DNA of 64,000 nucleotides, from assembly GCA_016223105.1 (NCBI GenBank), contig JACRPR010000072.1, positions 7,982-71,981 of the forward strand, written 5' to 3'. This stretch comes from Chloroflexota bacterium (lineage in GTDB: Bacteria; Chloroflexota; Anaerolineae; UBA4142). This document shows positions 7,543 to 63,410 of the stretch, piece after piece. Made by a program: the position numbers and the translations under genes. Under the pieces are notes generated by a model that made no database searches, had not been told where the DNA came from, and was given only the letters and a program-made list of their open reading frames with translations. Each line of letters starts with the position of its first letter. Positions within the stretch are counted from its first letter, which is position 1.

Positions 7543-9208
7543 ATTTCACGCGAAATTTGCCGCGTTGTGCGAAATGCGAATTGATGTAGAGTTCAATCGC
7601 GTACTCGCCGGGATCGAAAACGAATGTGTCCGTGTACCCCGGGCTCATCAAGCGATGCGCCGCGCCGGTCGCATCCAACTCCCAGGGCACGATCAGTCGC
7701 CACGACGGGTCCTCCGCGCCGTTGATGTACACTTTGAAAATGACCTGGTCGCCCTTTTTCATTCCCGCGTAATCGAACAACGCCGCGATCTCAACCGTGC
7801 CGTATTCAAATTCAGTGTCCTCCGCATAATCGGTAATGTTGCCTTTGGCGTCGTACTCCGGTTCGCCAAACGTAAACGCACCGATTTTCGCGGTGAGCGA
7901 TCCGACCGGCGGTTTGCCGGTGTACTCGAGCGCGACCGCAAGCCCTTTGAGTTGCGCGATCAGCGACTGCGCGATGGGGCGCGCGAGATCCGCGTTCGCG
8001 ATTTTTGCGCGCGGCGGTTCGCCTGTGCCGGTCGCGATCACTTGCAACAAATCATCCAGGTCAATCGCCGCGGTGTCGAGCGCCCACCACAAATTGTACG
8101 GCGGTTCTTTCCCGGCAGATTTGGCGTCCGCGACCTGGTTCGCGGCGGCGTTCATCCCTTCCACGTACGTCGCGGACGCGTCGGACGATTTGCCGGACGC
8201 GAGGAGCGCGAGCGCGAGATTGAAGCGAATCCATCCCTCGTTCGGATTTTCTTCGAGCGCGGCGCGATTCAAATCAATCGCGTTATCCAAGCGACCGAGC
8301 ATATAGTACGACCACGCGAGATTCCCGGCGATGTGCGCGCTCTTCGCATCCAACGCGCGCGCGCGTTCGTAACTCGGCACCGCCGCCGCGTAATCGCCCA
8401 ACTCGGCGTACGTATCCGCGCGATCCACGAGCGCGCTCGTGTAATCGGGCGCGGCTTGGATCGCGCGATCAAATTCCGCGATCGCTGGCTTGTGCAAACC
8501 TTGATGCGCGAGTCCGATGCCGCGCGCGTATGCCGGAATCGCGGCGCCGCGTTCGCGCAAATCCGGCACGGGTTGAATCAACAAAATGCCCGCCCACCCA
8601 ATCGCGACAAATGTAACGACAATGCCGGTCGCAGAAAAAATGACGCGCGCCGCCGCGCCGGAAATCAAGCCCGCCATACCGAGCAGAAACAACGCGACCG
8701 CGAGCAACGTGAGATGAATGATGTACGTGTTCGCTTTGTAATCCCACGCTTCTTTAACTGCGGTCGCGGCTTTGAATTTTTCGGTCAGTTCGGTGATCTC
8801 GACCAAGTACGTTTCGGCTTCGTACTTGGCAACGTTCAGATCGCCTTTCGCGCGATCAAAGTACGGCGGCGCGAGCAGGGGCGAAAGTTTTACGATTTTA
8901 TCGCGGAGCGCGGTGTACCGGCGCGCGGCATCCGGTTCGCCGCGTTTCGTCGCCGAGTCCGCGAGGATGCCGAGTTCGTACCATTGCTGATACGCTTTGT
9001 TGTAATCGTAATTCACGCGCGCGTCGCCGCTGACCTTGCGTCCGAACGCTTCGAGCGCGTAACGTTTGCTGTCACGATTCGCGCGATCATCGCGTTGCGC
9101 CGCGTCTGCTTGCAAGAACGCGATGATCGCCGCGAGCGCGGTGATCGTCGCGATCAAAACCGCGATGATTTGTTTGCCGCACCCGGTTTGGGAAGATGAT
9201 TGACTCAT
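7541..9208 (-). CDS. Membrane protein: TM, long helical region, 2 TM, TPR repeats, C-terminal beta-rich domain
   Basis: ATG 9208 (AAGGA upstream); the longer 9277 start is rejected. TPR-like repeats (AIAEFDRAIQAAPDYTSALVDRADTYAELGDYAAAVPSYERALDAK...). Function unknown. Confidence 0.6.
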   Translation of the reverse strand: MSQSSSQTGCGKQIIAVLIATITALAAIIAFLQADAAQRDDRANRDSKRYALEAFGRKVSGDARVNYDYNKAYQQWYELGILADSATKRGEPDAARRYTALRDKIVKLSPLLAPPYFDRAKGDLNVAKYEAETYLVEITELTEKFKAATAVKEAWDYKANTYIIHLTLLAVALFLLGMAGLISGAAARVIFSATGIVVTFVAIGWAGILLIQPVPDLRERGAAIPAYARGIGLAHQGLHKPAIAEFDRAIQAAPDYTSALVDRADTYAELGDYAAAVPSYERARALDAKSAHIAGNLAWSYYMLGRLDNAIDLNRAALEENPNEGWIRFNLALALLASGKSSDASATYVEGMNAAANQVADAKSAGKEPPYNLWWALDTAAIDLDDLLQVIATGTGEPPRAKIANADLARPIAQSLIAQLKGLAVALEYTGKPPVGSLTAKIGAFTFGEPEYDAKGNITDYAEDTEFEYGTVEIAALFDYAGMKKGDQVIFKVYINGAEDPSWRLIVPWELDATGAAHRLMSPGYTDTFVFDPGEYAIELYINSHFAQRGKFRVK

Positions 9209-11088: not shown

Positions 11089-11104
11089 TTTGATCTCCTT
11101 GGAA

Positions 11105-11180
11105 TTTAGATGTTGGAAATTGGAGGTTAGAAGTTGGAACGCGCAATCCAACTTCCAACTTCTAACATCCAACATCCAAT
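11105..11180. repeat. Word-repeat hairpin (GGAAGTT/GGATGTT words) downstream of metK
   Basis: GATGTTGGAAATTGGAGGTTAGAAGTTGGA-acgcgca-ATCCAACTTCCAACTTCTAACATCCAACATC. Confidence 0.75.
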
Positions 11181-12406: not shown

Positions 12407-12467
12407 GATTTCAAATTTCAAATTTCAGATTGATGAATCTGAAATCTGCAATCTGAAATCTGAAATT
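12407..12467. repeat. Word-repeat hairpin (GATTTCA/AATCTGA words) between ahcY and metK
   Basis: GATTTCAAATTTCAAATTTCAGATT-gatga-ATCTGAAATCTGCAATCTGAAATCTGAAAT. Confidence 0.8.
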
Positions 12468-15589: not shown

Positions 15590-16066
15590 TTATAATTTGA
15601 ATCGCCGCGCAAACTCGGCGGGTGTCAAAATCGGGATTCGCTGAAATGATTTGAGTACGGTCAGATCGCGATCGCCGGAGACGATGTAATCCGCATCGCC
15701 TTCAACCGCGCAAGCGAGAATTGCTACATCTTTGGGATCACGCAACGCGCTTACCGGTTTTTTAATGCCAGGCGTGATCACCGCGCTCGTCACCAAGAAA
15801 TCTACCAACGCGTCGCCGCGCTCTGCCACCTGTGCGTATTTTTTAGTGATATGTGGTCGGCGGATGGTAGTTTGATATTCCTCGATCAAGTAGCGTGAGG
15901 TGAGTAGCATGATCTGACCATTCCGCGCCGCTTGAAAAATCCGCGCGGAAGGACTGAGCGTTACGATGCTCGCACTGACCAGGACATTGGTGTCAATGAC
16001 GACTCGGGGCAAATTTCTCCGCGCGAATTTCGTGAACCACGCGATTAACATCCGCCATAACTTCAT
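15590..16066 (-). CDS. PIN-domain toxin (VapC-like)
   Basis: RVVIDTNVLVSA N-terminal acidic motif and later D residues (GDADYIVSGDRDL). The start is ambiguous (ATG 16066, ATG 16051 or an internal TTG). Overlaps the antitoxin 3' end. Confidence 0.7.
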   Translation of the reverse strand: MKLWRMLIAWFTKFARRNLPRVVIDTNVLVSASIVTLSPSARIFQAARNGQIMLLTSRYLIEEYQTTIRRPHITKKYAQVAERGDALVDFLVTSAVITPGIKKPVSALRDPKDVAILACAVEGDADYIVSGDRDLTVLKSFQRIPILTPAEFARRFKL

Positions 16067-16247
16067 CTTCCGTGACTCCCGGATTGGCTTCGCGAATCGC
16101 TTGCAGGGCTTCGTCCAAGCGTTGATTCATCCGTTCACGCACATCATCGCTTAGCAATGCGCGCAAGCGCAATTTTTCCTCAAATGGCAATTGACGAATT
16201 GCCTCTAATAATTGATCAACGGTCAAATGTAAAGTTACCGTTGCCAT
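15993..16247 (-). CDS. Putative antitoxin (helical addiction-module component)
   Basis: 84 aa, immediately upstream of and overlapping the PIN gene. TVDQLLEAIRQLPFEEKLRLRALL resembles addiction-module antidote N-termini. Confidence 0.55.
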   Translation of the reverse strand: MATVTLHLTVDQLLEAIRQLPFEEKLRLRALLSDDVRERMNQRLDEALQAIREANPGVTEDEVMADVNRVVHEIRAEKFAPSRH

Positions 16248-16255
16248 GTTTCACC

Positions 16256-17293
16256 TCACTTGACTGCCCGCATCACCCGCGCTAGATTTTCTACAAACGG
16301 CGGACGCACGACGCCGCGTTCCGTTACGAGCGCGGTGATGTACTTGTGCGGCGTTACATCGAACGCGGGATTGCCGACGCGCACACCATCGGGCGCGATC
16401 GGCACGCCTTCGATGTGCGTTACTTCGCGCGCGTCGCGTTCTTCGATTTCGATCAGATCACCGTGCGCCAAATTCAGATCAATCGTCGAAGTTGGCATCA
16501 CCGCGTAAAATGGAATCCCATTTTCATGCGCGACGACCGCGACCTTGTACGTGCCGATCTTGTTCGCGACATCGCCGTTCGCCGCGACGCGATCCGATCC
16601 GACGAAACATTTTTTGACGACGCCTTTGCGAAGATAATGCCCCGCGGCATTGTCCGCGATCAACGTCATCGGCACGCCGTATTGCATCAATTCCCACGCG
16701 GTCAACCGCGCGCCTTGTAAACGCGGACGCGTTTCATCCACGAGGACGTGCACGCGCTTGCCTTGCCGATGCGCTTGAATGATGCAACCGAGCGCAGTGC
16801 CAACGTCAACGGTCGCGAGTGGTCCCGTGTTGCAGTGATGCAAAATCGTATCGCCGTCTTCGATCAATGCCGCGCCGTTCTGCGCCATCGCGGTATTGAT
16901 CGCGACATCTTCTTCCGCGATCGTTTGCGCGAGCGCGACGACGAAATCGCGCAAGCCGTGCGCGTCGAGATTCTGCGCGCGCGTCGCGTTCATCACGCGA
17001 TCCAACGCCCACATCAAATTGACCGCGGTCGGACGCGTGGCGCGCAAAATTTTTTCGGCGGCATCGAGATCGCGCAAAAATTCTTCGCGCGAAGTTGCGC
17101 GCGCTTCAATCGCCGCGAGCGCGAGACCGAACGCCGCCGCCGCGCCAATCGCCGGCGCGCCGCGAATCGTCATATCCTTGATCGCGTGTGCGACCGCGCG
17201 ATAATCGCGGCACTCGACGATTTCAAATTGGCGCGGCAGTTTGCGCTGGTCAATCATCTTGACGACATCACCGATCATTTCAATCGTTCGCAT
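16256..17293 (-). CDS. mtnA: S-methyl-5-thioribose-1-phosphate isomerase
   Basis: ATG 17293 (GGAGAG RBS). eIF-2B alpha/beta/delta family: [23 protein letters not shown] ... [19 protein letters not shown]. Confidence 0.85.
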
Positions 17294-17307: not shown

Positions 17308-17535
17308 AAAAAAAAATCTCTCCGCGCAAGAGAGAGAACGTCAAAACACGCGTCTCATCTCCCAAGCCAAAGCACAGCGGCTTGCCGGAATTGGCACCGA
17401 TTTAGTTGGATAGTTGATTAGTTGGATAGTTGGTTAGTTGAATGTCAACTATCCAACTATGAAACTATATAACTATTGCACTACCGGTTGCCGAGGTTTC
17501 ACAGGGCCGATCCCTCCACCTCTCTGGATGAGTGT
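17308..17535 (-). promoter_or_regulatory. SAM-I (S-box) riboswitch with an intrinsic terminator, 5' of mtnA
   Basis: Minus-strand RNA: CUCAUCCAGAGAGGUGGAGGGAUCGGCCCUGUGAAACCUCGGCAACC-[~95-nt P3]-GGUGCCAAUUCCGGCAAGC...GGGAGAUGAG. This is followed by UCUCUC-uugcgcg-GAGAGA and U9. Confidence 0.88.
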
Positions 17536-17559
17536 CCAGTGGTATTTGATTGCGGAGAG

Positions 17560-17588
17560 TTTATAGCACAAGCGAAATGTTTTGTCAA
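17560..17588 (-). promoter_or_regulatory. Sigma-70-like promoter for the riboswitch-mtnA unit
   Basis: Minus strand TTGACA (17583-17588), 17-nt spacer, TATAAA (17560-17565). Confidence 0.5.
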
Positions 17589-19903
17589 TTTGAAATTTGA
17601 ATCGTGGTGAGCGTGATGTGATCGTCATTGTTCACCGGCAAACGCGCGCCGCCATTCGCGCGATACACGCCGACAAAAATTTTATACGCGCCGGGTGAAA
17701 GATCGCGCGGGATAATCAACGCGTACTCGTCCGCGACAATTTCGCCCGCGTCCCACAATGAAGTTGGATACGCGCCGCTCTGCGGCTGATCATCTTTTTG
17801 CGCGATGATTTTGCCGGTCGCGTCAACGAGATGCATGAACACGGTGTACTCTTGATCTATCGCGCCGCGCGCTTGCCAAAATAATTTCACGCGCAATGAT
17901 TCGCCATCGCGCGCGACCGAATGTCCGACAAGCGCGAGTTGATCCGCGAATTCATAGCGCGCCGGATTTTCGATTTGCACACGCGCTTGCCCAGCGATTT
18001 TGAAGCGCGCGAGCGTCGGCGTGATCGCGTTCCTGCGCGGATCGCGCGCGACCAGGTTTTCGAGCGGCACGCGGCGATAGAGCGTTACGTCAATCCGTCC
18101 GCCGCCCGGTCCGCGCGCGTCGCGCGATAACGGCACGCGATATTCGTCCGCGATAATTTCGCCGACCTGCCACAATCGCGTCGGATACAAACCGCGACCG
18201 GGGAACGCATCCCAGCGTCCGATCACATCACCACGCGCGTCGAGCAAGCGAAGCCCCACCGAAAAATCTTCCGCGATGCGTTCACGCGCGCGCCAATAAA
18301 TCGTGATCGGCAATTCGCCACCGGGCGCAACCGATTTTTGCGCGAGCGCGTAACCGATCAATTCGATCTGATCGTCGAAAATAATTTGCGTCGGATTTGG
18401 CACGCGCGCTTCATCGGAAAAACGCGCGGGCAAAGTGTACGTGGGCGCGATGAGCGTGAAAGGGGCGAGCGCGGCAAAAGTTAAAAGTAAAAAGGTAAAA
18501 ATAAAAAGTAATCCGTAATGCGTGATGCGTAAAATCTGAAATCTGAAATGTGAAATCTGAAATCCGCTCAGCCCGTAGACAAACAAAACTGCCACCGCGC
18601 TGATTGCCGGAAAAATCAGACGACCTTGCGATGCCATCGTGAGCCACGTCCAACGCACCAGCGAGAGATTGATCAGAATGAACCACAGCGCGGGCAACGC
18701 GATCAAACCGGGCAACGCGCGGCGAAAAATTCCGATCACCAAACCAATCAACGCGATCAGCGTGAACGCATCGAGAAGTGTGTACACAATTTCCGGCGCG
18801 ATGATGTTGACGCCGCCGAAATTGCCCCAAAACGAAATGCGAAATCCTTGCAGTTCGCCGAGCAAACTCGCGAACGAAACCGGCGTCGCGCGCCCACCAG
18901 CAATCGCGACCCAAACATTGAACGCTAGCGGATCGTCGTACAGCATCCAGTTGCGCGCGTACCACCAGAACGCGAGCGCGACGACGAGCGCGGCGCAAAC
19001 AAAACTGCCCTTGATAATTTCGAGTGGGTGAGCGGGTGAGTGGGTGAGTGGGAGAATTGCTCCCCCTCTCCCTCTCTTCCCCTCTCCCACTCGGTTTCGC
19101 CATAATAGATACGCGAACACAATCGCCGCGACACCGAGCAAACCCAGGTTACTAATTTTCGTGAGCGCGCCGAGACCCAGCACGATCCCAAGAATGACAA
19201 ACCGTTGCATCGTCGCACCACGCGTAACAAGTCGCGTCATCAGCAACAGCGCGAGCGTCGCGAGCATCGTCGCGAGGTTGTCATTGTTCACCGACGCGCT
19301 GATGAAAATAAACATCGGATTGCACGCGACCAGCGCGGCGGCGAATGCGGGAATGTCATTGCGAGCGAAGCGAAGCAATCCCCACCGCGCGGTGGAGATT
19401 GCTTCGTCGCCAAGGTCGCTCCTCGCAATGACAATTTCGCGCGCGAGCGCGTAGGTCAGCGCGACGGTGAGCGCGGAAAATATAATCGAGAGGAACCGGA
19501 TGAGGTGAACCGCGAGCGCGGTATTATGCCACGGAAAACTTTCCGCGTTCGTGTGGACGATCAAATTCTTGTTGCCAAAAACCAGGGGGATGCCAATTTT
19601 CGCATGCGGGTTGAGCCACACGCGCTCCGGCAAATCGCGCGCGTCAATCCAAAATGTCGCGAGCGCGCTGATCGCATAATACAGCGGTGGCTGTCCGCCC
19701 TCTTGCTCCCACAACGTTTTCACATTCGGGTCTTGGATCGGCAATCCATTCCCGGTCGCGAGATGTTGGATGAACGGATAATGCCAAATCTCATCGCCCG
19801 CTTCAAAAATCGGCGTGAGGATCGAGTACGTGATCGCAAGCGCGAGGAACGCGACCAGGATCAAAATCAGCGCGCGATTATTTGCCCACATAGATCGTTT
19901 CAA
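17585..19903 (-). CDS. GT-C fold membrane glycosyltransferase (GT39/ArnT/PMT-like), paralog 1, with two C-terminal beta-sandwich repeats
   Basis: 772 aa, more than 10 TM helices, first-loop EAGDEIWHYP acidic motif. The C-terminus carries two ~130-aa repeats (YWRA...DFSV / FWQA...EYTVFMHLVD...). Contains several in-frame repeat-derived segments. Confidence 0.7.
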   Translation of the reverse strand: MKRSMWANNRALILILVAFLALAITYSILTPIFEAGDEIWHYPFIQHLATGNGLPIQDPNVKTLWEQEGGQPPLYYAISALATFWIDARDLPERVWLNPHAKIGIPLVFGNKNLIVHTNAESFPWHNTALAVHLIRFLSIIFSALTVALTYALAREIVIARSDLGDEAISTARWGLLRFARNDIPAFAAALVACNPMFIFISASVNNDNLATMLATLALLLMTRLVTRGATMQRFVILGIVLGLGALTKISNLGLLGVAAIVFAYLLWRNRVGEGKRGRGGAILPLTHSPAHPLEIIKGSFVCAALVVALAFWWYARNWMLYDDPLAFNVWVAIAGGRATPVSFASLLGELQGFRISFWGNFGGVNIIAPEIVYTLLDAFTLIALIGLVIGIFRRALPGLIALPALWFILINLSLVRWTWLTMASQGRLIFPAISAVAVLFVYGLSGFQISHFRFQILRITHYGLLFIFTFLLLTFAALAPFTLIAPTYTLPARFSDEARVPNPTQIIFDDQIELIGYALAQKSVAPGGELPITIYWRARERIAEDFSVGLRLLDARGDVIGRWDAFPGRGLYPTRLWQVGEIIADEYRVPLSRDARGPGGGRIDVTLYRRVPLENLVARDPRRNAITPTLARFKIAGQARVQIENPARYEFADQLALVGHSVARDGESLRVKLFWQARGAIDQEYTVFMHLVDATGKIIAQKDDQPQSGAYPTSLWDAGEIVADEYALIIPRDLSPGAYKIFVGVYRANGGARLPVNNDDHITLTTIQISN
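18481..18565. repeat. Word-repeat segment (AAAAGTA, GATGCGT and AATCTGA words) inside GT-C paralog 1
   Basis: TTAAAAGTAAAAAGGTAAAAATAAAAAGTAATCCGTAATGCGTGATGCGTAAAATCTGAAATCTGAAATGTGAAATCTGAAATCC, translated as FQISHFRFQILRITHYGLLFIFTFLLLT. Confidence 0.7.
19022..19093. repeat. Word-repeat hairpin (GGGTGAG / CCCTCTC) inside GT-C paralog 1
   Basis: GAGTGGGTGAGCGGGTGAGTGGGTGAGTGGGAGAATTGCTCCCCCTCTCCCTCTCTTCCCCTCTCCCACTC, translated as GEGKRGRGGAILPLTHSPAHPL. Confidence 0.7.
19355..19433. repeat. Family C 79-bp hairpin element inside GT-C paralog 1
   Basis: GTCATTGCGAGCGAAGCGAAGCAATCCCCACCGCGCGGTGGAGATTGCTTCGTCGCCAAGGTCGCTCCTCGCAATGAC, translated as ...SDLGDEAISTARWGLLRFARNDI. Confidence 0.85.
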
Positions 19904-34810: not shown

Positions 34811-34957
34811 TTGGAAATTGGAAATTAGAAATTGGAAGTTGGAAGACGTGATACGTGATGCGTGATAATCTCACGCATCACGCATCACGTTTTACGTTTT
34901 ACGTTTTACGTTTTACGTTTTACGTTTTACGTTTTACGCTTTACGCTTTACGTTTTA
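34811..34957 (-). repeat. Composite intercistronic element: (ACGTTTT)x10 tandem, a GATGCGT-word hairpin and TTGGAAA words
   Basis: Ten 7-nt units at 34887-34956. Hairpin ACGTGATACGTGATGCGTGA-taatc-TCACGCATCACGCATCACGT at 34846-34890. TTGGAAATTGGAAATTAGAAATTGGAAGTTGGAAG at 34811-34845. The substrate-binding-protein stop at 34955 lies within it. Confidence 0.85.
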
Positions 34958-36889
34958 CTTGATCGTCCAACTTTCCGCGTAGAACGGAATGTATTTGCCT
35001 TCGTTCACATCATAGTACGTGAACGGCGGATAGAGCGCATTGCTCAAGACCGCGCCGCTTGCCATGATGTTGTCCGTCGAATAGAGATTGTAATTCGCTT
35101 TCGGTGGTTGCACGTACGGGTACGAGGTCTTGAATTCTTTCGCGCGATTCGTCGCGCTCGGTTTGAGTTGACCGCTCAAGAGCTGGCGCGCGACCGGCGA
35201 ATTGTTCTGATTGTTTTTGTAAATCTTGTCGTCCACCGGCAACCAACCGGTCACCCGCGTCTTGGTGTCAATCGGATCGGTGAGGTAGCGTTCGAACATC
35301 ATCAAGACGGGCAAACTGTCGTTGAAGAACGATGCGACATCGGCGATGTAGGGTTTTTGTTTTTCCGCGTCAAACCCTTCCGCCATCTTGTCCACCCATT
35401 CCTTGATGTTGATCTCTTTGCCATCCGCGGTTTTTTGCTTGAACGGCAAGTTGATGCCGCGTTCGCCTTCGTTGCCTTCGGGATTGTTTTTCCAACCCGC
35501 GCTCACCACACCCGGGCGCAAGTTGTAATCGAAGGAAACGTACGGGTGAAAGTACGTAAAGCGGAAACCAATGTCCATCGAAATTTGATACTTGCCGGCT
35601 TTGTGGAGGTTGGTGCGTTCGGACGATTGGTACGGCTTGACCGTGATCTTGATGCCGAACTTGGTTAATTGTTGCGCGACGTTTTCGGACGACGCGAGGT
35701 ATTCGGTGAAATCGGCGGGCACGCTCAATTCAAATTCCAGTTTCTTGCCCTTGTCATCCACCCAAATGCCATCCGCGCCTTTTTTGAAATTGAGCCCAGT
35801 CAACAACGCTTCGGCTTTTTTCACATCCGCATCGTACGTGTTGAGTTTGGCAAGTTGCGCGGCGGAAAGCCAGGTCGGCACTGCGGCATCGGTAAAGCCG
35901 GCTTCGTACTTGACCGGGCGGCACGCATCGCCGAACGCAACCTTGCAATTTTCAACGCGATCAATCGCGTACGCGAATGCCTGGCGCACTTCTTTTTTGT
36001 TCAGCGGATAGACATCGTTGTTAAAGTACATCCCGGGTCCGTTCGTCCCAGGTCCGCCGAGCACGACCATGTGATTGCCGACCGCGCGAATCGCTTGCAA
36101 ATTCGCGGGGCTGTACGCGTTCGAGGAATAGTCCATATCGTTCGAGAGATACAATGGCATATCCTGAACGGTGTCGCCCCAGTACACGGTAACTTTGTCG
36201 AAATCAATCTTGTCCGCGTTGAACCCGGACGCGTTCTTGACCATCGTGAATTGCGCTTCGGTAACTTGTTTCGGATCAATGTTGAACGGACCGTAGACGA
36301 TCGCGCTCGGCGGGCGGAACGCGTTCATTTCGTCGAGCGTTTTGGTTACGTCCGCGCTTTTGCGGTCAGTGTTATTTTTGCGAAAACCGGCGGCGGCGTC
36401 CATCCATTTGCCGTACTGCGCGTACGGACGCGTGACGGTCGCGCGCACAATCGTGTCGAGAATCGCGGGACCGGGGGTTTTGATCGTGAACTCGACGGTC
36501 GCGTCATCTTTCGCGACGACATCGTTCAGCGCGTTCCAGGTCGAGCTGGTTTGCATCCACAAAATGTTGTACGTGCCGACGACATCTTTCGAGCTGAACG
36601 CGGAGCCGTCGCTCCATTTCATGCCCTTGCGAAGATTGATCGTGATCGTTGTAACGCCGGGCGCGGCGGGTTTAGTTGGCTCTGCCGGTTTCGTGGCAAC
36701 CGGCGCGGTCGTCGCCGCGGGCTTGGTGGGTTCCGGTGCTTTGGTTGCCGGCACCGCGGTCGGCGGCACCGCCGCCGTTGGTTTCGGCGCGTCGGTCGGT
36801 TTAGGCGCGGGCGTCGGCGTTGGCGCGGCGCACGCGACGAGCGCGACAAGCGCGATCAGCAATGTGAGCGCGAGCAAAATCTTTTTCAT
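34955..36889 (-). CDS. ABC transporter substrate-binding lipoprotein, family 5 (peptide/nickel/oligosaccharide type)
   Basis: Lipobox LVAC followed by a ~60-aa Pro/Thr/Ala tether. Family-5 body (INLRKGMKWSDGSAFSSKDVV...). Confidence 0.8.
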   Translation of the reverse strand: MKKILLALTLLIALVALVACAAPTPTPAPKPTDAPKPTAAVPPTAVPATKAPEPTKPAATTAPVATKPAEPTKPAAPGVTTITINLRKGMKWSDGSAFSSKDVVGTYNILWMQTSSTWNALNDVVAKDDATVEFTIKTPGPAILDTIVRATVTRPYAQYGKWMDAAAGFRKNNTDRKSADVTKTLDEMNAFRPPSAIVYGPFNIDPKQVTEAQFTMVKNASGFNADKIDFDKVTVYWGDTVQDMPLYLSNDMDYSSNAYSPANLQAIRAVGNHMVVLGGPGTNGPGMYFNNDVYPLNKKEVRQAFAYAIDRVENCKVAFGDACRPVKYEAGFTDAAVPTWLSAAQLAKLNTYDADVKKAEALLTGLNFKKGADGIWVDDKGKKLEFELSVPADFTEYLASSENVAQQLTKFGIKITVKPYQSSERTNLHKAGKYQISMDIGFRFTYFHPYVSFDYNLRPGVVSAGWKNNPEGNEGERGINLPFKQKTADGKEINIKEWVDKMAEGFDAEKQKPYIADVASFFNDSLPVLMMFERYLTDPIDTKTRVTGWLPVDDKIYKNNQNNSPVARQLLSGQLKPSATNRAKEFKTSYPYVQPPKANYNLYSTDNIMASGAVLSNALYPPFTYYDVNEGKYIPFYAESWTIK

Positions 36890-36905: not shown

Positions 36906-36960
36906 TTAGTTGGATAGTTGAATTGTTGAATTGTTGGATAGTTGGATAGTTGTTGGTTGA
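36906..36960 (+). repeat. One-armed word run (GGATAGTT/GAATTGTT words)
   Basis: TTAGTTGGATAGTTGAATTGTTGAATTGTTGGATAGTTGGATAGTTGTTGGTTGA. Confidence 0.7.
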
Positions 36961-38902: not shown

Positions 38903-39880
38903 TCATGTCGTACGCCAATTCCAACACGCGACGCGATGCCCGCTCGCAATCTCTTCCAGTTCCGGCTCATCGCGTTTGCACCGCGCGTCCGCGCGCGGAC
39001 AGCGCGGATGAAATTTACACCCGCTTGGCAATTCGATCAAGTCCGGCGGCGAACCTGGGATCGAAGTCAAATCTTCTTTCGCGCCTTGAAGCGTCGGCAC
39101 CGCGTTGATCAAGCCAATCGTGTACGGATGCGCGGGCGTTTTGAACGTCGTCGTAACATCTGCAAATTCGACGATTTTGCCGGCGTACACCGTCGCGACA
39201 CGATCGGCGAGTTCGGCGGCGAGCGACAAATCGTGCGAAATAAAAATCAACGAGAAATCGAGTTTGCCGCGCAATTCTTTCAGCACGTCCATAATATTGC
39301 GTTGCGTCAGAATGTCGAGCGCGGTCGTCGGCTCATCGAGAATCAAGAGTTGCGGTTCGAGCAGTAAGCCGAGCGCGATCAGCACGCGTTGCCGCATGCC
39401 GCCGGACAATTCGTGCGGAAACGATTTCCACACGCGTTCCGGATCGAGCCGGACGAGCGTGAGCAAATGTTCCGCGCGTTCTTTCAGCGCGCGCCCTTGC
39501 AAATAGTTATGCGCGCGCGCCGTGTCGCCGAATTGATCCGCGATGCGTAAAACCGGGTTGAGCGAGTTGAGCGCGGATTGAAACACCATCGCGCACTCTT
39601 TCCAACGAAACTCGCGGAGGGCTTTGCCCTTCAGCGTGAGCGCGTCAATCGTTTTATTGTCGCGATGATACAGCGCATTGCCCTGCGTGATCTTCGCGGT
39701 ACTCGGAAGCAATTGCACCACGCCCAAGCCGAGCGTCGTTTTGCCGGAACCGCTTTCGCCGATCAGCGCGAGCGCATCGCCACGCGCAACGTCGAAGGAC
39801 ACGTTGCGAATCGCGCGCACCTTGCCGCGCCGCGCGGCGTATTCGATGGATAAATTTTGAACAGATAAAGTTGGAGGCAT
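38903..39880 (-). CDS. ABC transporter ATP-binding protein (OppD/DppD-like)
   Basis: ATG 39880; the upstream extension is repeat-encoded. Walker A GESGSGKTT, signature LSGGMRQR, Walker B LILDEPTT. Confidence 0.85.
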   Translation of the reverse strand: MPPTLSVQNLSIEYAARRGKVRAIRNVSFDVARGDALALIGESGSGKTTLGLGVVQLLPSTAKITQGNALYHRDNKTIDALTLKGKALREFRWKECAMVFQSALNSLNPVLRIADQFGDTARAHNYLQGRALKERAEHLLTLVRLDPERVWKSFPHELSGGMRQRVLIALGLLLEPQLLILDEPTTALDILTQRNIMDVLKELRGKLDFSLIFISHDLSLAAELADRVATVYAGKIVEFADVTTTFKTPAHPYTIGLINAVPTLQGAKEDLTSIPGSPPDLIELPSGCKFHPRCPRADARCKRDEPELEEIASGHRVACWNWRTT

Positions 39881-39968
39881 AGTTGGATGGTTGGATAGTT
39901 GGGTAGTTGGGTAGTTGAATAGTTGCGTGGTTGGAAGAATTATCCAACTATCCAACTATTCAACTATC
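39880..39968. repeat. Word-repeat hairpin (GGATAGTT/GGGTAGTT words)
   Basis: ATAGTTGGATGGTTGGATAGTTGGGTAGTTGGGTAGTTGAATAGTTG ... TTATCCAACTATCCAACTATTCAACTATC. Confidence 0.75.
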
Positions 39969-39971
39969 TAA

Positions 39972-40085
39972 TTTGACAATGTCAGATTAGCCACAGAATC
40001 ACACAGAAACACACAGAATAAGAAAAAATTTCTGTGAAATTCTGTGTGTTTCTGTGGCAGAAAAAGGAAATCTGACATTGCCAAA
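39972..40085. repeat. Nested two-level hairpin (outer GACAATGTCAGATT, inner CACAGAA words)
   Basis: TTTGACAATGTCAGATT-[AGCCACAGAATCACACAGAAACACACAGAA ... TTCTGTGAAATTCTGTGTGTTTCTGTGGC]-AATCTGACATTGCCAAA. Confidence 0.8.
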
Positions 40086-42549: not shown

Positions 42550-42625
42550 TATGGGACGCGGATGAGCGCGGAGGAACGCGGATAAAAAAGAATAATCCGC
42601 GTTCGTCCGCGTTTGTCCGCGTCCA
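42550..42625. repeat. Family R ~76-bp hairpin element (copy 1 of 3)
   Basis: TATGGGACGCGGATGAGCGCGGAGGAACGCGGATAAAAAAGAATAATCCGCGTTCGTCCGCGTTTGTCCGCGTCCA. Confidence 0.85.
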
Positions 42626-46353: not shown

Positions 46354-46430
46354 TATGGGACGTAGATGAACGCAGATGAACGCAGATTTTTTCTTCTTAT
46401 CCGCGTTCGTCCGCGTTTGTCCGCGTCCCA
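46354..46430. repeat. Family R hairpin element (copy 2 of 3)
   Basis: TATGGGACGTAGATGAACGCAGATGAACGCAGATTTTTTCTTCTTATCCGCGTTCGTCCGCGTTTGTCCGCGTCCCA. Confidence 0.85.
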
Positions 46431-56036: not shown

Positions 56037-56059
56037 CTCTGTAGTTGCATAGTGAAATA

Positions 56060-56119
56060 GTTCGATAGTGCGATAGTTAAAAACTATCGCACTATCGAAC
56101 TAGGAAACTATCGCACTAT
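56060..56119. repeat. Word-repeat hairpin (CGATAGTG words) between the liv substrate-binding-protein gene and livH
   Basis: GTTCGATAGTGCGATAGTT-aaaa-AACTATCGCACTATCGAAC followed by TAGGAAACTATCGCACTAT. Confidence 0.8.
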
Positions 56120-58988: not shown

Positions 58989-59002
58989 CCAAGTGAGTTC
59001 CT

Positions 59003-59060
59003 TTATTTCCCTTATTTCCCTCATTTCCGTATCGGGAAATGAGGGAAATGAAGGAAATTA
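59003..59060. repeat. Word-repeat hairpin (GGAAATGA words) between the M24 and E2 genes
   Basis: ATTTCCCTTATTTCCCTCATTTCC-gtatc-GGGAAATGAGGGAAATGAAGGAAAT. Confidence 0.8.
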
Positions 59061-61210: not shown

Positions 61211-61285
61211 TAATGCGTGATGCGTGATGCGTGATGCGTGAACCTCACGAATCACGCATCACGTTTTACGTTTTACGTTTTACGA
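61211..61285 (-). repeat. ACGTTTT/GATGCGT composite element abutting the E1-beta stop codon
   Basis: TAATGCGTGATGCGTGATGCGTGATGCGTGA-acc-TCACGAATCACGCATCACG followed by (TTTTACG)x3. The stop at 61280-61282 lies inside it. Confidence 0.85.
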
Positions 61286-62266
61286 TTTCCCGCAGAGCAT
61301 ACGCGCCATTTCAAAAACTGTTTGCTCCGTCGGCACCGTTACATCTTCGAGCGTGGGCGAAAATGGCACCGGCACATTCAGTGCACCCATTCGTTTGACC
61401 GGCGCGTCGAGATAGTAAAACGCGCCTTCCGCGATGACCGACGCGATTTCGGCGGTGACACCGTACTGCTCGTACCCTTCGTCAATCACAATCGCGCGCG
61501 AAGTTTTTTTCGCGGACTCGATACAAGTTTTTTTATCGAGCGGCAACGTCGTGCGCGGATCGATCACCTCCGCGCCGATACCGATTTGCGCGAGCATCTC
61601 CGCCGCGCCGAGCGCGACCTGCACCATCGAACTTGTCGCGACGAGCGTGATGTCACTGCCCGCGCGTTTCACATCGGCAACGCCGAACGGAATCGTGTAA
61701 TCATCCGTCGGTACAACACCTTTCATTTTGAACATCATCTTGTCTTCAAAAAAAACGACCGGGTTGTTATCGCGAATCGCGGTTTTCAGCAAACCCTTGG
61801 CATCGTACGGCGTTGATGGAATCGCGACTTTCAACCCAGGAATGTGGCTGACCCACGCGTGCAAACTTTGCGAGTGTTGCGCCGCCGAGCGTCGCGTCGC
61901 GCCCATCGTCGTGCGAAACACCATCGGCACATTCAGTTTGCCGCCGGACATGTAATGCACTTTGGCGGCTTGGTTCGCGATTTGATCCATCGCCAGTGTG
62001 AGAAAATCGCCGAACATTAAATCCACAACCGGGCGCATCCCGGTCATCGCCGCGCCAACGCCGATGCCGGAAAAACCAGGTTCAGAAATCGGCGTGTCAA
62101 TCACGCGCGCTGTGCCAAACTCTTCGACCAAGCCGGATAAAACTTTGAACGGCGTTCCCGCTTCGGCGACATCTTCGCCGAAGATGAACACGCGCGCATC
62201 GCGCCGCATCTCCTCCGCGAGCGCTTCGCGGATCGCTTCGGCAAACGTGATTTCGCGATCAGACAT
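61280..62266 (-). CDS. 2-oxoacid dehydrogenase E1 component, beta subunit
   Basis: 328 aa. VFIFGEDV...GTARVIDTPISEPGFSGIGVGAAMTGMRPVV transketolase-like pyrimidine-binding domain. Confidence 0.9.
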   Translation of the reverse strand: MSDREITFAEAIREALAEEMRRDARVFIFGEDVAEAGTPFKVLSGLVEEFGTARVIDTPISEPGFSGIGVGAAMTGMRPVVDLMFGDFLTLAMDQIANQAAKVHYMSGGKLNVPMVFRTTMGATRRSAAQHSQSLHAWVSHIPGLKVAIPSTPYDAKGLLKTAIRDNNPVVFFEDKMMFKMKGVVPTDDYTIPFGVADVKRAGSDITLVATSSMVQVALGAAEMLAQIGIGAEVIDPRTTLPLDKKTCIESAKKTSRAIVIDEGYEQYGVTAEIASVIAEGAFYYLDAPVKRMGALNVPVPFSPTLEDVTVPTEQTVFEMARMLCGKS

Positions 62267-62288: not shown

Positions 62289-62364
62289 TATGGGACGCGG
62301 ACAAACGCGGATGAACGCGGATAATTTTCTCTTGTCCATGTTTGTCCGTGTTAATCCGCGTCCA
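62289..62364. repeat. Family R hairpin element (copy 3 of 3) between E1 alpha and E1 beta
   Basis: TATGGGACGCGGACAAACGCGGATGAACGCGGATAATTTTCTCTTGTCCATGTTTGTCCGTGTTAATCCGCGTCCA. Confidence 0.85.
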
Positions 62365-63356: not shown

Positions 63357-63410
63357 AAAACGTAAAGCGTAAAACGTGAAACGTAATTGCGCTTTACGTT
63401 TTACGTTTTA
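63357..63410 (-). repeat. ACGTTTT-word hairpin abutting the stop codon of the dehydrogenase gene
   Basis: AAAACGTAAAGCGTAAAACGTGAAACGTAA-ttgc-GCTTTACGTTTTACGTTTTAT. The stop at 63408-63410 lies inside it. Confidence 0.8.

Follow-up and report, generated by a model that had tools for sequence, protein, structure and literature searches.

Introduction

Riboswitches of the SAM-I (S-box) type sense S-adenosylmethionine (SAM). The Bacillus subtilis yitJ and metI leaders and the Thermoanaerobacter tengcongensis metF aptamer all share one four-way junction with a conserved core, and S-box control of methionine salvage by transcription attenuation is standard for S-box regulons. In the SAM-I crystal structures, the junction-proximal pairs of the P3 stem contact SAM; the distal part of P3 lies outside ligand binding and tertiary contacts. 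Here, we describe one leader of this type, located upstream of mtnA on the minus strand of a 64-kb stretch of contig JACRPR010000072.1 from a Chloroflexota bacterium; the whole 64,000-nt stretch is referred to as the window. Like the known S-box leaders, it has the four-way junction and the conserved core, precedes a gene of the methionine/SAM cycle and possesses a classical P1/antiterminator/terminator-U-run platform. Different from typical S-box members, its P3 interior is 87 nt in length (up to 125 nt in relatives), compared to a median of 27 nt in riboswitches with the same 42-nt core, and the P3 tip is built of tandem 7–8 nt units (words) and is hypervariable among close relatives. We consider it likely that the element is a working SAM-I riboswitch, the distal P3 of which is a tolerated hypervariable expansion segment fed by genome-wide tandem-word arrays.

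Vioque (1997, Nucleic Acids Res 25:3471) reportedly described short tandemly repeated repetitive (STRR) heptamers within the gene for RNase P RNA in heterocyst-forming cyanobacteria. Such repeats are said to lengthen the peripheral P12 helix, which varies between strains. As in the window, tandem repeats of ~7 nt that are common in intergenic DNA are also found within one structured RNA. Different from the STRR case, the host is a member of Chloroflexota, the RNA is a cis-regulatory riboswitch and not a ribozyme, many words are in use, and replacement has occurred between near-identical flanks. The window contains abundant intergenic tandem units of ~7 nt, but they do not belong to the defined families STRR1-3 of heterocystous cyanobacteria; its arrays are an analogue of STRR, not a member.

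Long simple-sequence repeats in bacteria, including heptanucleotide arrays, were analysed by Mrazek et al. (2007, summarised in PMC4679880), with polymerase slippage as the proposed origin. TAACTGA direct repeats occur immediately before start codons in Beggiatoaceae, Cyanobacteria and Bacteroidetes (PMC4679880); Chloroflexota are unmentioned in that article. The arrays described below resemble the TAACTGA arrays in their 7-nt tandem units, their intergenic and often directly pre-start-codon positions and their sporadic phylogenetic spread, and the CAGT/ACTG core of many of the words resembles TAACTGA itself. However, in the TAACTGA study one dominant word forms direct repeats, apart from one reported indirect repeat (PMC4679880), whereas many words per genome, frequent inverted pairs, 8- and 10-nt periods and residence in a riboswitch helix are found here. 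Our literature search, the coverage of which is incomplete, identified no account of S-box P3 stems made of repeats or of word hairpins in Chloroflexota, and the review PMC10907184 has nothing on P3 length. The riboswitch itself is ordinary; what is new is the repeat-built hypervariable P3 across one clade and several S-box regulons, together with the underlying genome-wide arrays.

The mtnA leader of the window and its extended P3

RF00162 (SAM-I / S-box) gave the single Rfam match in the whole window, at 17534→17352 on the minus strand. The aptamer is 183 nt in size and contains P1–P4; its covariance-model (CM) score is 74.7 bits, compared to a gathering score of 44.4 (E 1.1e-15), and the match covers the full model (1–108). 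One 77-nt insertion occurs in the alignment where the model has 6 P3-loop positions. Read as reverse complement, the core words CUCAUC/GAUGAG, AGAGAGGUGGAGGGA, GGCCC, GAAACC, GCAACC and GGUGCCAAUUCC are all present, and the conserved core AGAG..GGAGGGA..GGCCC..GAA..GCAACC..GGUGCCAAUUCC..AGAUGAG matches the upper-case consensus positions of the CM alignment. The core is identical in >20 orthologs. P1 is formed by the 5′ strand CUCAUC (17527–17532) and the 3′ strand GAUGAG (17354–17359), the latter of which is also part of the antiterminator; the P4 hairpin spans residues 17362–17386. When 17352–17534 was folded alone, the minimum free energy (MFE) structure was a four-way junction of P1, P2, one extended continuous P3 and P4 (−70.4 kcal/mol), in agreement with the structure line of the CM. 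The K-turn- and pseudoknot-forming sequences of characterised SAM-I members are a GA-rich P2 bulge and AAUUCC in J3/4. Both are present in the sequence; the CM has no pseudoknot term. The initial annotation of this DNA had placed a SAM-I riboswitch with an intact S-box core upstream of mtnA. The end-to-end RF00162 match with its P3-loop insertion, the core words on the minus strand and the TIGR00512 assignment of MtnA all bear this out. By sequence and predicted fold, this leader contains a genuine SAM-I riboswitch, with a predicted ligand response.

As located by the CM, TRF and folding, the P3 interior (17399–17485, minus strand) runs from GCAACC to GGUGCC and is 87 nt in length. It is a hairpin extension composed of 8-nt TAGTTGNN/NNCAACTA units. 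In the RNA sense, the 5′ arm contains four AUAGUUNN units and the 3′ arm five CAACUANN units; the corresponding TRF arrays are 17403–17440 (TAGTTGGA) and 17446–17476 (CAACTATA). Within the units, the 5-nt core UAGUU/AACUA is conserved and the 3-nt spacer is variable, and the hairpin consists of core helices of 5–8 bp with periodic internal loops between them. One 95-nt P3 fragment folds at −33.5 kcal/mol, compared to −11.7 ± 2.6 for shuffled sequences (z = −8.3). An insert of ~95 nt had been proposed previously; the oversize stands, though the exact length does not. P3 had also been taken as the one stem that is free to vary. P3 is indeed variable, but it is not the sole variable stem, as P4 varies too, with loop insertions of 27 nt in the related locus L001 and 19 nt in L003. 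No word arrays were seen in these P4 loops.

All elements of the expression platform are on the minus strand. The −35 hexamer TTGACA (17583–17588) and the −10 hexamer TATAAA (17560–17565), which lies 17 nt past it, are invariant in the window and in the relatives L201, L202 and L022; one simple promoter scanner missed TATAAA because it demands T at the last −10 position. The intrinsic terminator (17308–17337), which is kept in all orthologous leaders, consists of one stem-loop (17337–17317) followed by U9 (17316–17308). Its stem contains 7 pairs, 3 of which are G-C. Both the TTGACA-17-TATAAA promoter and the terminator with its U9 run had been recognized in the initial annotation. The antiterminator (17329–17363), formed by pairing of GGGAGAUGAGACG with CGUUCUCUCUCU, has a folding energy of −18.4 kcal/mol with the 3′ half of the terminator blocked; it is mutually exclusive with both P1 and the terminator, and the orthologous pairing in the relatives is GAUGAGAG/CUCUCAUC. 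The mtnA gene (16256–17293) encodes S-methyl-5-thioribose-1-phosphate isomerase of 345 residues (TIGR00512, 415.8 bits, cut-off 279). Its ATG (17293–17291) is preceded by the Shine–Dalgarno sequence GGAGAG (17303–17298), the start is conserved in the orthologs, and the aptamer end (17352) is 59 nt from the ATG (17293).

The riboswitch probably controls mtnA via transcription attenuation, and its control probably extends to the pfkB-type kinase and S-adenosylhomocysteine (SAH) hydrolase genes located downstream. Judged from the sequence and from knowledge of the family, P1 would be closed in the SAM-bound state, the UCUCUCU...GGAGAGA-U9 terminator would form and transcription would stop. In the absence of SAM, the 3′ strand of P1 would pair with the 5′ half of the terminator, forming the antiterminator, and mtnA would be transcribed. 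The TGA stop (17587–17585) of the upstream 772-residue open reading frame (ORF) falls within the −35 hexamer, and no terminator is located between them; transcription from upstream could also read through into the leader.

Two features could be taken as signs that the insertion wrecked P3 and left a decaying relic: the sense hairpin is broken by the periodic internal loops and is slightly weaker than its antisense counterpart (−28.3 versus −33.6 kcal/mol), and the terminator stem is limited to the few pairs given above. However, the RF00162 match is of full length and far above threshold, and the MFE structure is a four-way junction with a closed P3. Moreover, across many genomes with long P3 tips there is almost no change in the aptamer core, promoter, antiterminator or terminator, which points to purifying selection. 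Inactivation of the riboswitch is very improbable. The invariant core and expression platform, together with arms that are kept paired, argue that the riboswitch works.

Turnover of the P3 tip among close relatives

We compared the window with 80 genomic mtnA loci, with L201 and L202 (MtnA identities of 91% and 89%, respectively) and with 120 metagenome loci that carry the 42-nt core. Among the window, L201, L202 and L022, the promoter, aptamer core, P4, antiterminator, terminator and mtnA start are near-invariant, and the leader outside P3 ranks with the best-conserved parts of the locus. The P3 tip could not be aligned among the same four loci. Between the window and L201 or L202, the leader flanks are 92–94% identical, whereas the P3 identity is 0.54–0.62, compared to a shuffle baseline of 0.52.

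The L002 and L004 loci are 93.7% identical over 3.4 kb and ~100% identical over ~270 nt of the leader. The L002 tip is 74 nt in length and made of GTGGTCA-type units, the L004 tip is 31 nt in length and made of CTAGTCG-type units, and the two are unrelated. Near-identical leaders with unrelated tips point to replacement. Other tips are persistent: L015 and L016 carry the same 95-nt tip with 5 mismatches, and the tips of L034 and L094 are identical. Homologous tips differ by whole units; compared to L123, L002 and L034, L182 is without blocks of 7, 7 and 13 nt, in both arms. Differences by whole 7-nt units indicate growth and shrinkage. According to the initial annotation, the hairpin had seemingly either landed in P3 or grown from it. 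Both find support, the one in the replacement between near-identical leaders and the other in the unit insertions and deletions. The window and L202 arrays align unit for unit; their cores, TAGTT/AACTA and TAGTC/GACTA, respectively, differ by one complementary change.

L123 is a metY-type leader with metY-metX behind it; its tip shares ~85% identity with the mtnA tips of L034 and L002, and its ortholog L154 carries a different tip. Paralogous S-box leaders share 42 and 12 nt of identical sequence on the two sides of P3. The likeness of the L123 tip to those of L034 and L002 fits exchange between paralogous S-box leaders.

Long P3 tips in related Chloroflexota

The closest MtnA proteins, 85–91% identical, are from metagenome-assembled genomes labelled Chloroflexi, Anaerolineae, Anaerolineales or Ca. 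Aquidulcis. RF00162 matched just upstream of mtnA in 19 of the 20 closest loci, with aptamers of 106–213 nt. No mtnA riboswitch was found in the more distant Anaerolineae, Thermoflexales and Caldilineales loci (L019–L043); the mtnA-riboswitch association is limited to the closer clade.

Word-built P3 tips of 47–105 nt, with a period of 7 or 8, are present in 26 of the 33 mtnA leaders of related Chloroflexota; the tips of the other 7 are short or non-repetitive (5–51 nt). The word changes almost genome by genome and includes GAGATTA, CAGTNNN (CAGTAGT/CAGTGAT), GTTGGAA, GTCGGATT, AAGTGAC, GGTAATT and TAGTCGNN. Word-built tips also occur in the leaders of other S-box genes, namely metK (L107, L158 and L164), metE (L155), metY/O-acetylhomoserine sulfhydrylase (L123 and L154) and one Cys/Met pyridoxal phosphate enzyme (L153), all confirmed by RF00162 matches and protein family models. 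The P3 interior of 30 word-type riboswitches has a median of 81.5 nt (range 47–125), compared to 27 nt (interquartile range 22–34, 95th percentile 58) for 109 other riboswitches with the identical 42-nt core. We rejected assembly artefact as an explanation, since independent assemblies from many studies have the same architecture. These results extend the initial reading of one oversized stem: the oversized P3 is clade-wide, its word differs between genomes, and genome-wide arrays stand behind the tip.

Each of the 30 word-type P3 tips has two roughly balanced arms, compared to fewer than half of the intergenic arrays of the window. This is the pattern that purifying selection on P3 closure would give, and the pairing of the P3 arms is what does look selected. 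A functional module, such as a platform for a protein that binds the word in RNA or DNA, an RNase III entry site governing the stability of the leader or mRNA, or a co-transcriptional folding timer, would fit the long two-armed tips, which persist in 26 of 33 mtnA leaders and several further S-box leaders although their sequences turn over constantly. It would also fit the conserved 5-nt core with its free 3-nt spacer, as binding-site arrays would have, and the unit-for-unit alignment of the window and L202 with their complementary core change. However, no P3 sequence is kept between leaders that are 92–100% identical elsewhere, and the extension is short or missing in L005, L006, L023, L118, L125 and L167, where the riboswitch is intact. 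In 11 of 23 cases the sense strand gives the more stable hairpin, G-U pairs are no more numerous in sense, and the extension would probably not lengthen the decision window. Taken together, we regard a module selected for its length as unlikely, and we found no evidence for a function of the P3 extension of its own. On the same strand comparison, RNA-level optimisation of P3 on the transcribed strand was rejected.

Three further features were noticed in the related leaders. First, L100, L131, L143, L189, L191 and L119 carry a second kind of long P3, which is non-repetitive, conserved and ~58 nt in length (consensus ...GGGTCACACTCATCCGACTTGATCGGCGA...); these leaders precede one cystathionine-gamma-synthase-like gene. 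Second, in the expression platform of L153 (oriented, ~930–1010), ~31 nt (GTATAACGATGCTGCTTATGAAGCCTCT...) between aptamer and terminator are directly duplicated without a mismatch. Third, the TGTCATTTCGAG motif and one G+C-rich palindrome follow the S-box terminator in L001 (~2385–2440), L003 (~2215–2270) and L123 (~640–700). The TGTCATTTCGAG motif is thus found in three genomes and in two leader types (mtnA and metY), and it may be another small dispersed element.

Tandem-word arrays in the window and its relatives

The word of the window P3 is strongly enriched in the window. There are 8 occurrences of GGATAGTT, compared to 0.40 expected (0 of 100 shuffles reach 8), and 12 occurrences of TAGTTNNWTAGTT, compared to 0 expected; all of them are located within 17403–17475, 36907–36951 and 39893–39966. 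The initial annotation had linked the insert to sites at 36906 and 39880, and the same word is indeed found at 36907 and 39879. The first of these sites is a single-armed TAGTTGGA array of 5.8 units (36907–36952, plus strand) in the 5′ untranslated region (UTR) of the minus-strand gene 34955–36889, where it sits between two GGAGG motifs, just upstream of GGAGGAG. The second is one two-armed hairpin of the TAGTTGGA word (39879–39968, plus strand), with ~6 units in one arm and 3.5 in the other, which adjoins the likely ATG of the next gene. Taken as 39877–39968, this TAGTTGG hairpin reaches the likely ATG (39879–39877, minus strand, MPPTLSVQNLSIEYAAR...), and no Shine–Dalgarno sequence is located between them. 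Both arrays recall the Beggiatoaceae TAACTGA repeats upstream of start codons. One more two-armed hairpin, found in the array listing and the site alignment, uses the variant word ATAGTTCG/ATAGTGCG (56057–56119, plus strand).

When the four same-word sites were aligned, the mean column identity was 60% and only the periodic word was common; the sites differ in unit number, spacer bases, loops and ends. As they share the word only, they are not copies of one element. A rival reading would make the hairpin a discrete miniature mobile element, similar to REP/REPIN or MITE elements, that transposed into the P3 loop, with the other TAGTTGGA sites as further copies. REP, REPIN and MITE elements are likewise short, intergenic, hairpin-forming and multicopy; the same word occurs at three or four sites of the window, tips are replaced wholesale between near-identical leaders, and two different S-box leaders share an almost unchanged hairpin. 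Different from such elements, the sites here are without fixed sequence, ends or length, the unit number is variable and single arms are common. The sites have neither termini nor a loop, length or target duplication in common, their arms are unequal in unit number and one of them is single-armed. In the window, more than half of the array clusters have one arm only, and the words pass gradually into each other. Related tips differ by whole repeat units, which is the behaviour of an array and not of a fixed element. Membership in the REP, REPIN or MITE classes finds no support in shared termini or loops among the four sites, and a mobile element of this kind appears quite improbable; in its fixed form it was rejected, as the same-word sites have no shared ends or loop.

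Arrays of other words are widespread. Nearly every intergenic spacer of the window contains tandem arrays of 7-, 8-, 9- or 10-nt words, and 38 merged arrays with a period of 7, 8 or their multiples (14, 16, 21, 24) were counted in 64 kb (0.59 per kb). Examples are located at 2576–2655, 11099–11179, 12408–12466, 34811–34958, 39992–40056, 58998–59058, 61213–61288 and 63357–63410. The words include GTTGGAA, CAGTGAA, ACGTTTT/ACGCATC, AATCTGA, GGTAATT, GAGTGGGT, ACGCGGATGA and TAGTTGGA, and they recur across sites and across related genomes, where most intergenic spacers are likewise filled with such arrays. We distinguished ~31 intergenic array clusters with at least 8 different words, of which ~13 (~42%, including the 11099–11179 pair) are inverted pairs and ~18 are single-armed; this split is our own classification of the array listing. 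Many of the inverted pairs fold as long hairpins with periodic mismatches.

The presence of a word-built P3 goes together with arrays elsewhere in the locus. The flanks of word-type P3 loci contain 107 period-7/8 arrays in 262 kb, and those of ordinary-P3 loci contain 30 in 582 kb, a contrast of about eightfold in density (Mann–Whitney p = 7e-14, the significance of which is inflated by the kinship of the loci). The short-P3 orthologs L005, L006 and L023 have 1, 1 and 0 arrays, respectively, in their whole 6-kb loci. Arrays are frequent in L001–L022; hardly any occur in loci from Dehalococcoidia and Acidobacteriota (L040–L080). Enrichment of the P3 word itself is visible only in the 64-kb window, as the 6-kb loci of the relatives are too short and 7-mers are common by chance. 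In L164, one M-box (RF00380, 142.6 bits) of normal length is located at 7742–7908, on the same contig as the metK S-box with its word-built P3; this indicates that not every riboswitch in such genomes hosts arrays.

Some arrays and neighbouring features are of separate interest. At 18476–18564 and 19022–19092, three adjacent 7-nt arrays and one GAGTGGGT/CTCCCCCT hairpin (−50.5 kcal/mol) are found inside the 772-residue ORF upstream of the leader (17585–19903, minus strand). The C-terminal half of this ORF is homologous (27% identity) to one syntenic 773-residue gene of L201; either arrays were absorbed in frame into the coding region or two genes were fused. One element of 10-nt units, with ACGCGGATGA and TCCGCGTTCG arms, is present in three copies (42556–42622, 46360–46426 and 62295–62352), all of which share the identical 5′ end TATGGGACG..., and two of which also share most of the 3′ arm. 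Different from the other arrays, these may be true dispersed element copies. The mtnA-pfkB gap contains one PIN-domain toxin gene (TIGR00305) in the window (15590–16250), one nucleotidyltransferase/HepT pair in L202 (4040–4811) and nothing in the P0003-bearing contig; the mtnA-pfkB-ahcY cluster looks like a hot spot for toxin-antitoxin cassettes.

Discussion

The reading that we favour, a working SAM-I riboswitch with a tolerated P3 expansion, can be put as follows. The 87-nt hairpin is located at the distal tip of P3, past the junction-proximal pairs, and would be an expansion segment rather than a sensor. The tip would originate from the genome-wide population of 7–8 nt tandem-word arrays of the lineage. 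Replication slippage would add and remove its units. A whole tip may be replaced when it collapses and a different seed grows in its place, or when it recombines or undergoes gene conversion with other arrays or with paralogous S-box leaders. Selection on riboswitch folding would then keep only two-armed balanced arrays in P3.

Several points weigh against this reading. SAM binding and termination are predictions from sequence, both for this RNA and for the long-P3 relatives. The prevalence of the long P3 (26 of 33) could mean that its length is selected and not just tolerated. The P4 loop tolerates insertions as well, yet it never hosts word arrays; tolerance alone therefore fails to explain P3 as the host. 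The mechanism by which arrays are created and replaced is one that we infer, the phylogenetic relatedness of the loci means that the p value of the flank comparison overstates independence, and the L123 (metY) and L034/L094 (mtnA) leaders may come from different genomes.

We also put forward, tentatively, a dedicated, active and hitherto undescribed process in these Chloroflexota that writes, homogenises and replaces 7–8 nt word arrays at hairpin tips and in spacers. Candidates may be slippage or template switching by a specialised activity, or selection driven by a protein that binds particular words. If this is true, the array-writing process would be rapid enough to exchange P3 tips between genomes that are ~94% identical overall, and the arms would stay complementary by concerted change, as between the TAGTT/AACTA cores of the window and the TAGTC/GACTA cores of L202. 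The S-box P3 would then be a natural, structurally understood recorder of this process.

Under the favoured reading of a tolerated expansion, the distal SAM-I P3 takes 50–125 nt of unrelated hairpin while the leader is otherwise almost invariant, a natural experiment on insertion tolerance. The distal P3 is a safe site for engineering, and covariance-model matches with large internal insertions deserve keeping. Beyond the riboswitch, the analysis points to tandem-word arrays and hairpins that pervade one uncultured Chloroflexota clade and seem not to have been described before. The mtnA leader lets the turnover of such arrays be gauged against a strongly conserved frame: how units come and go, how whole tips are exchanged and how paralogous leaders may convert one another. 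Such a locus also gives better access to where STRR-like heptamers come from and what they do, which has been in question since about 1990.

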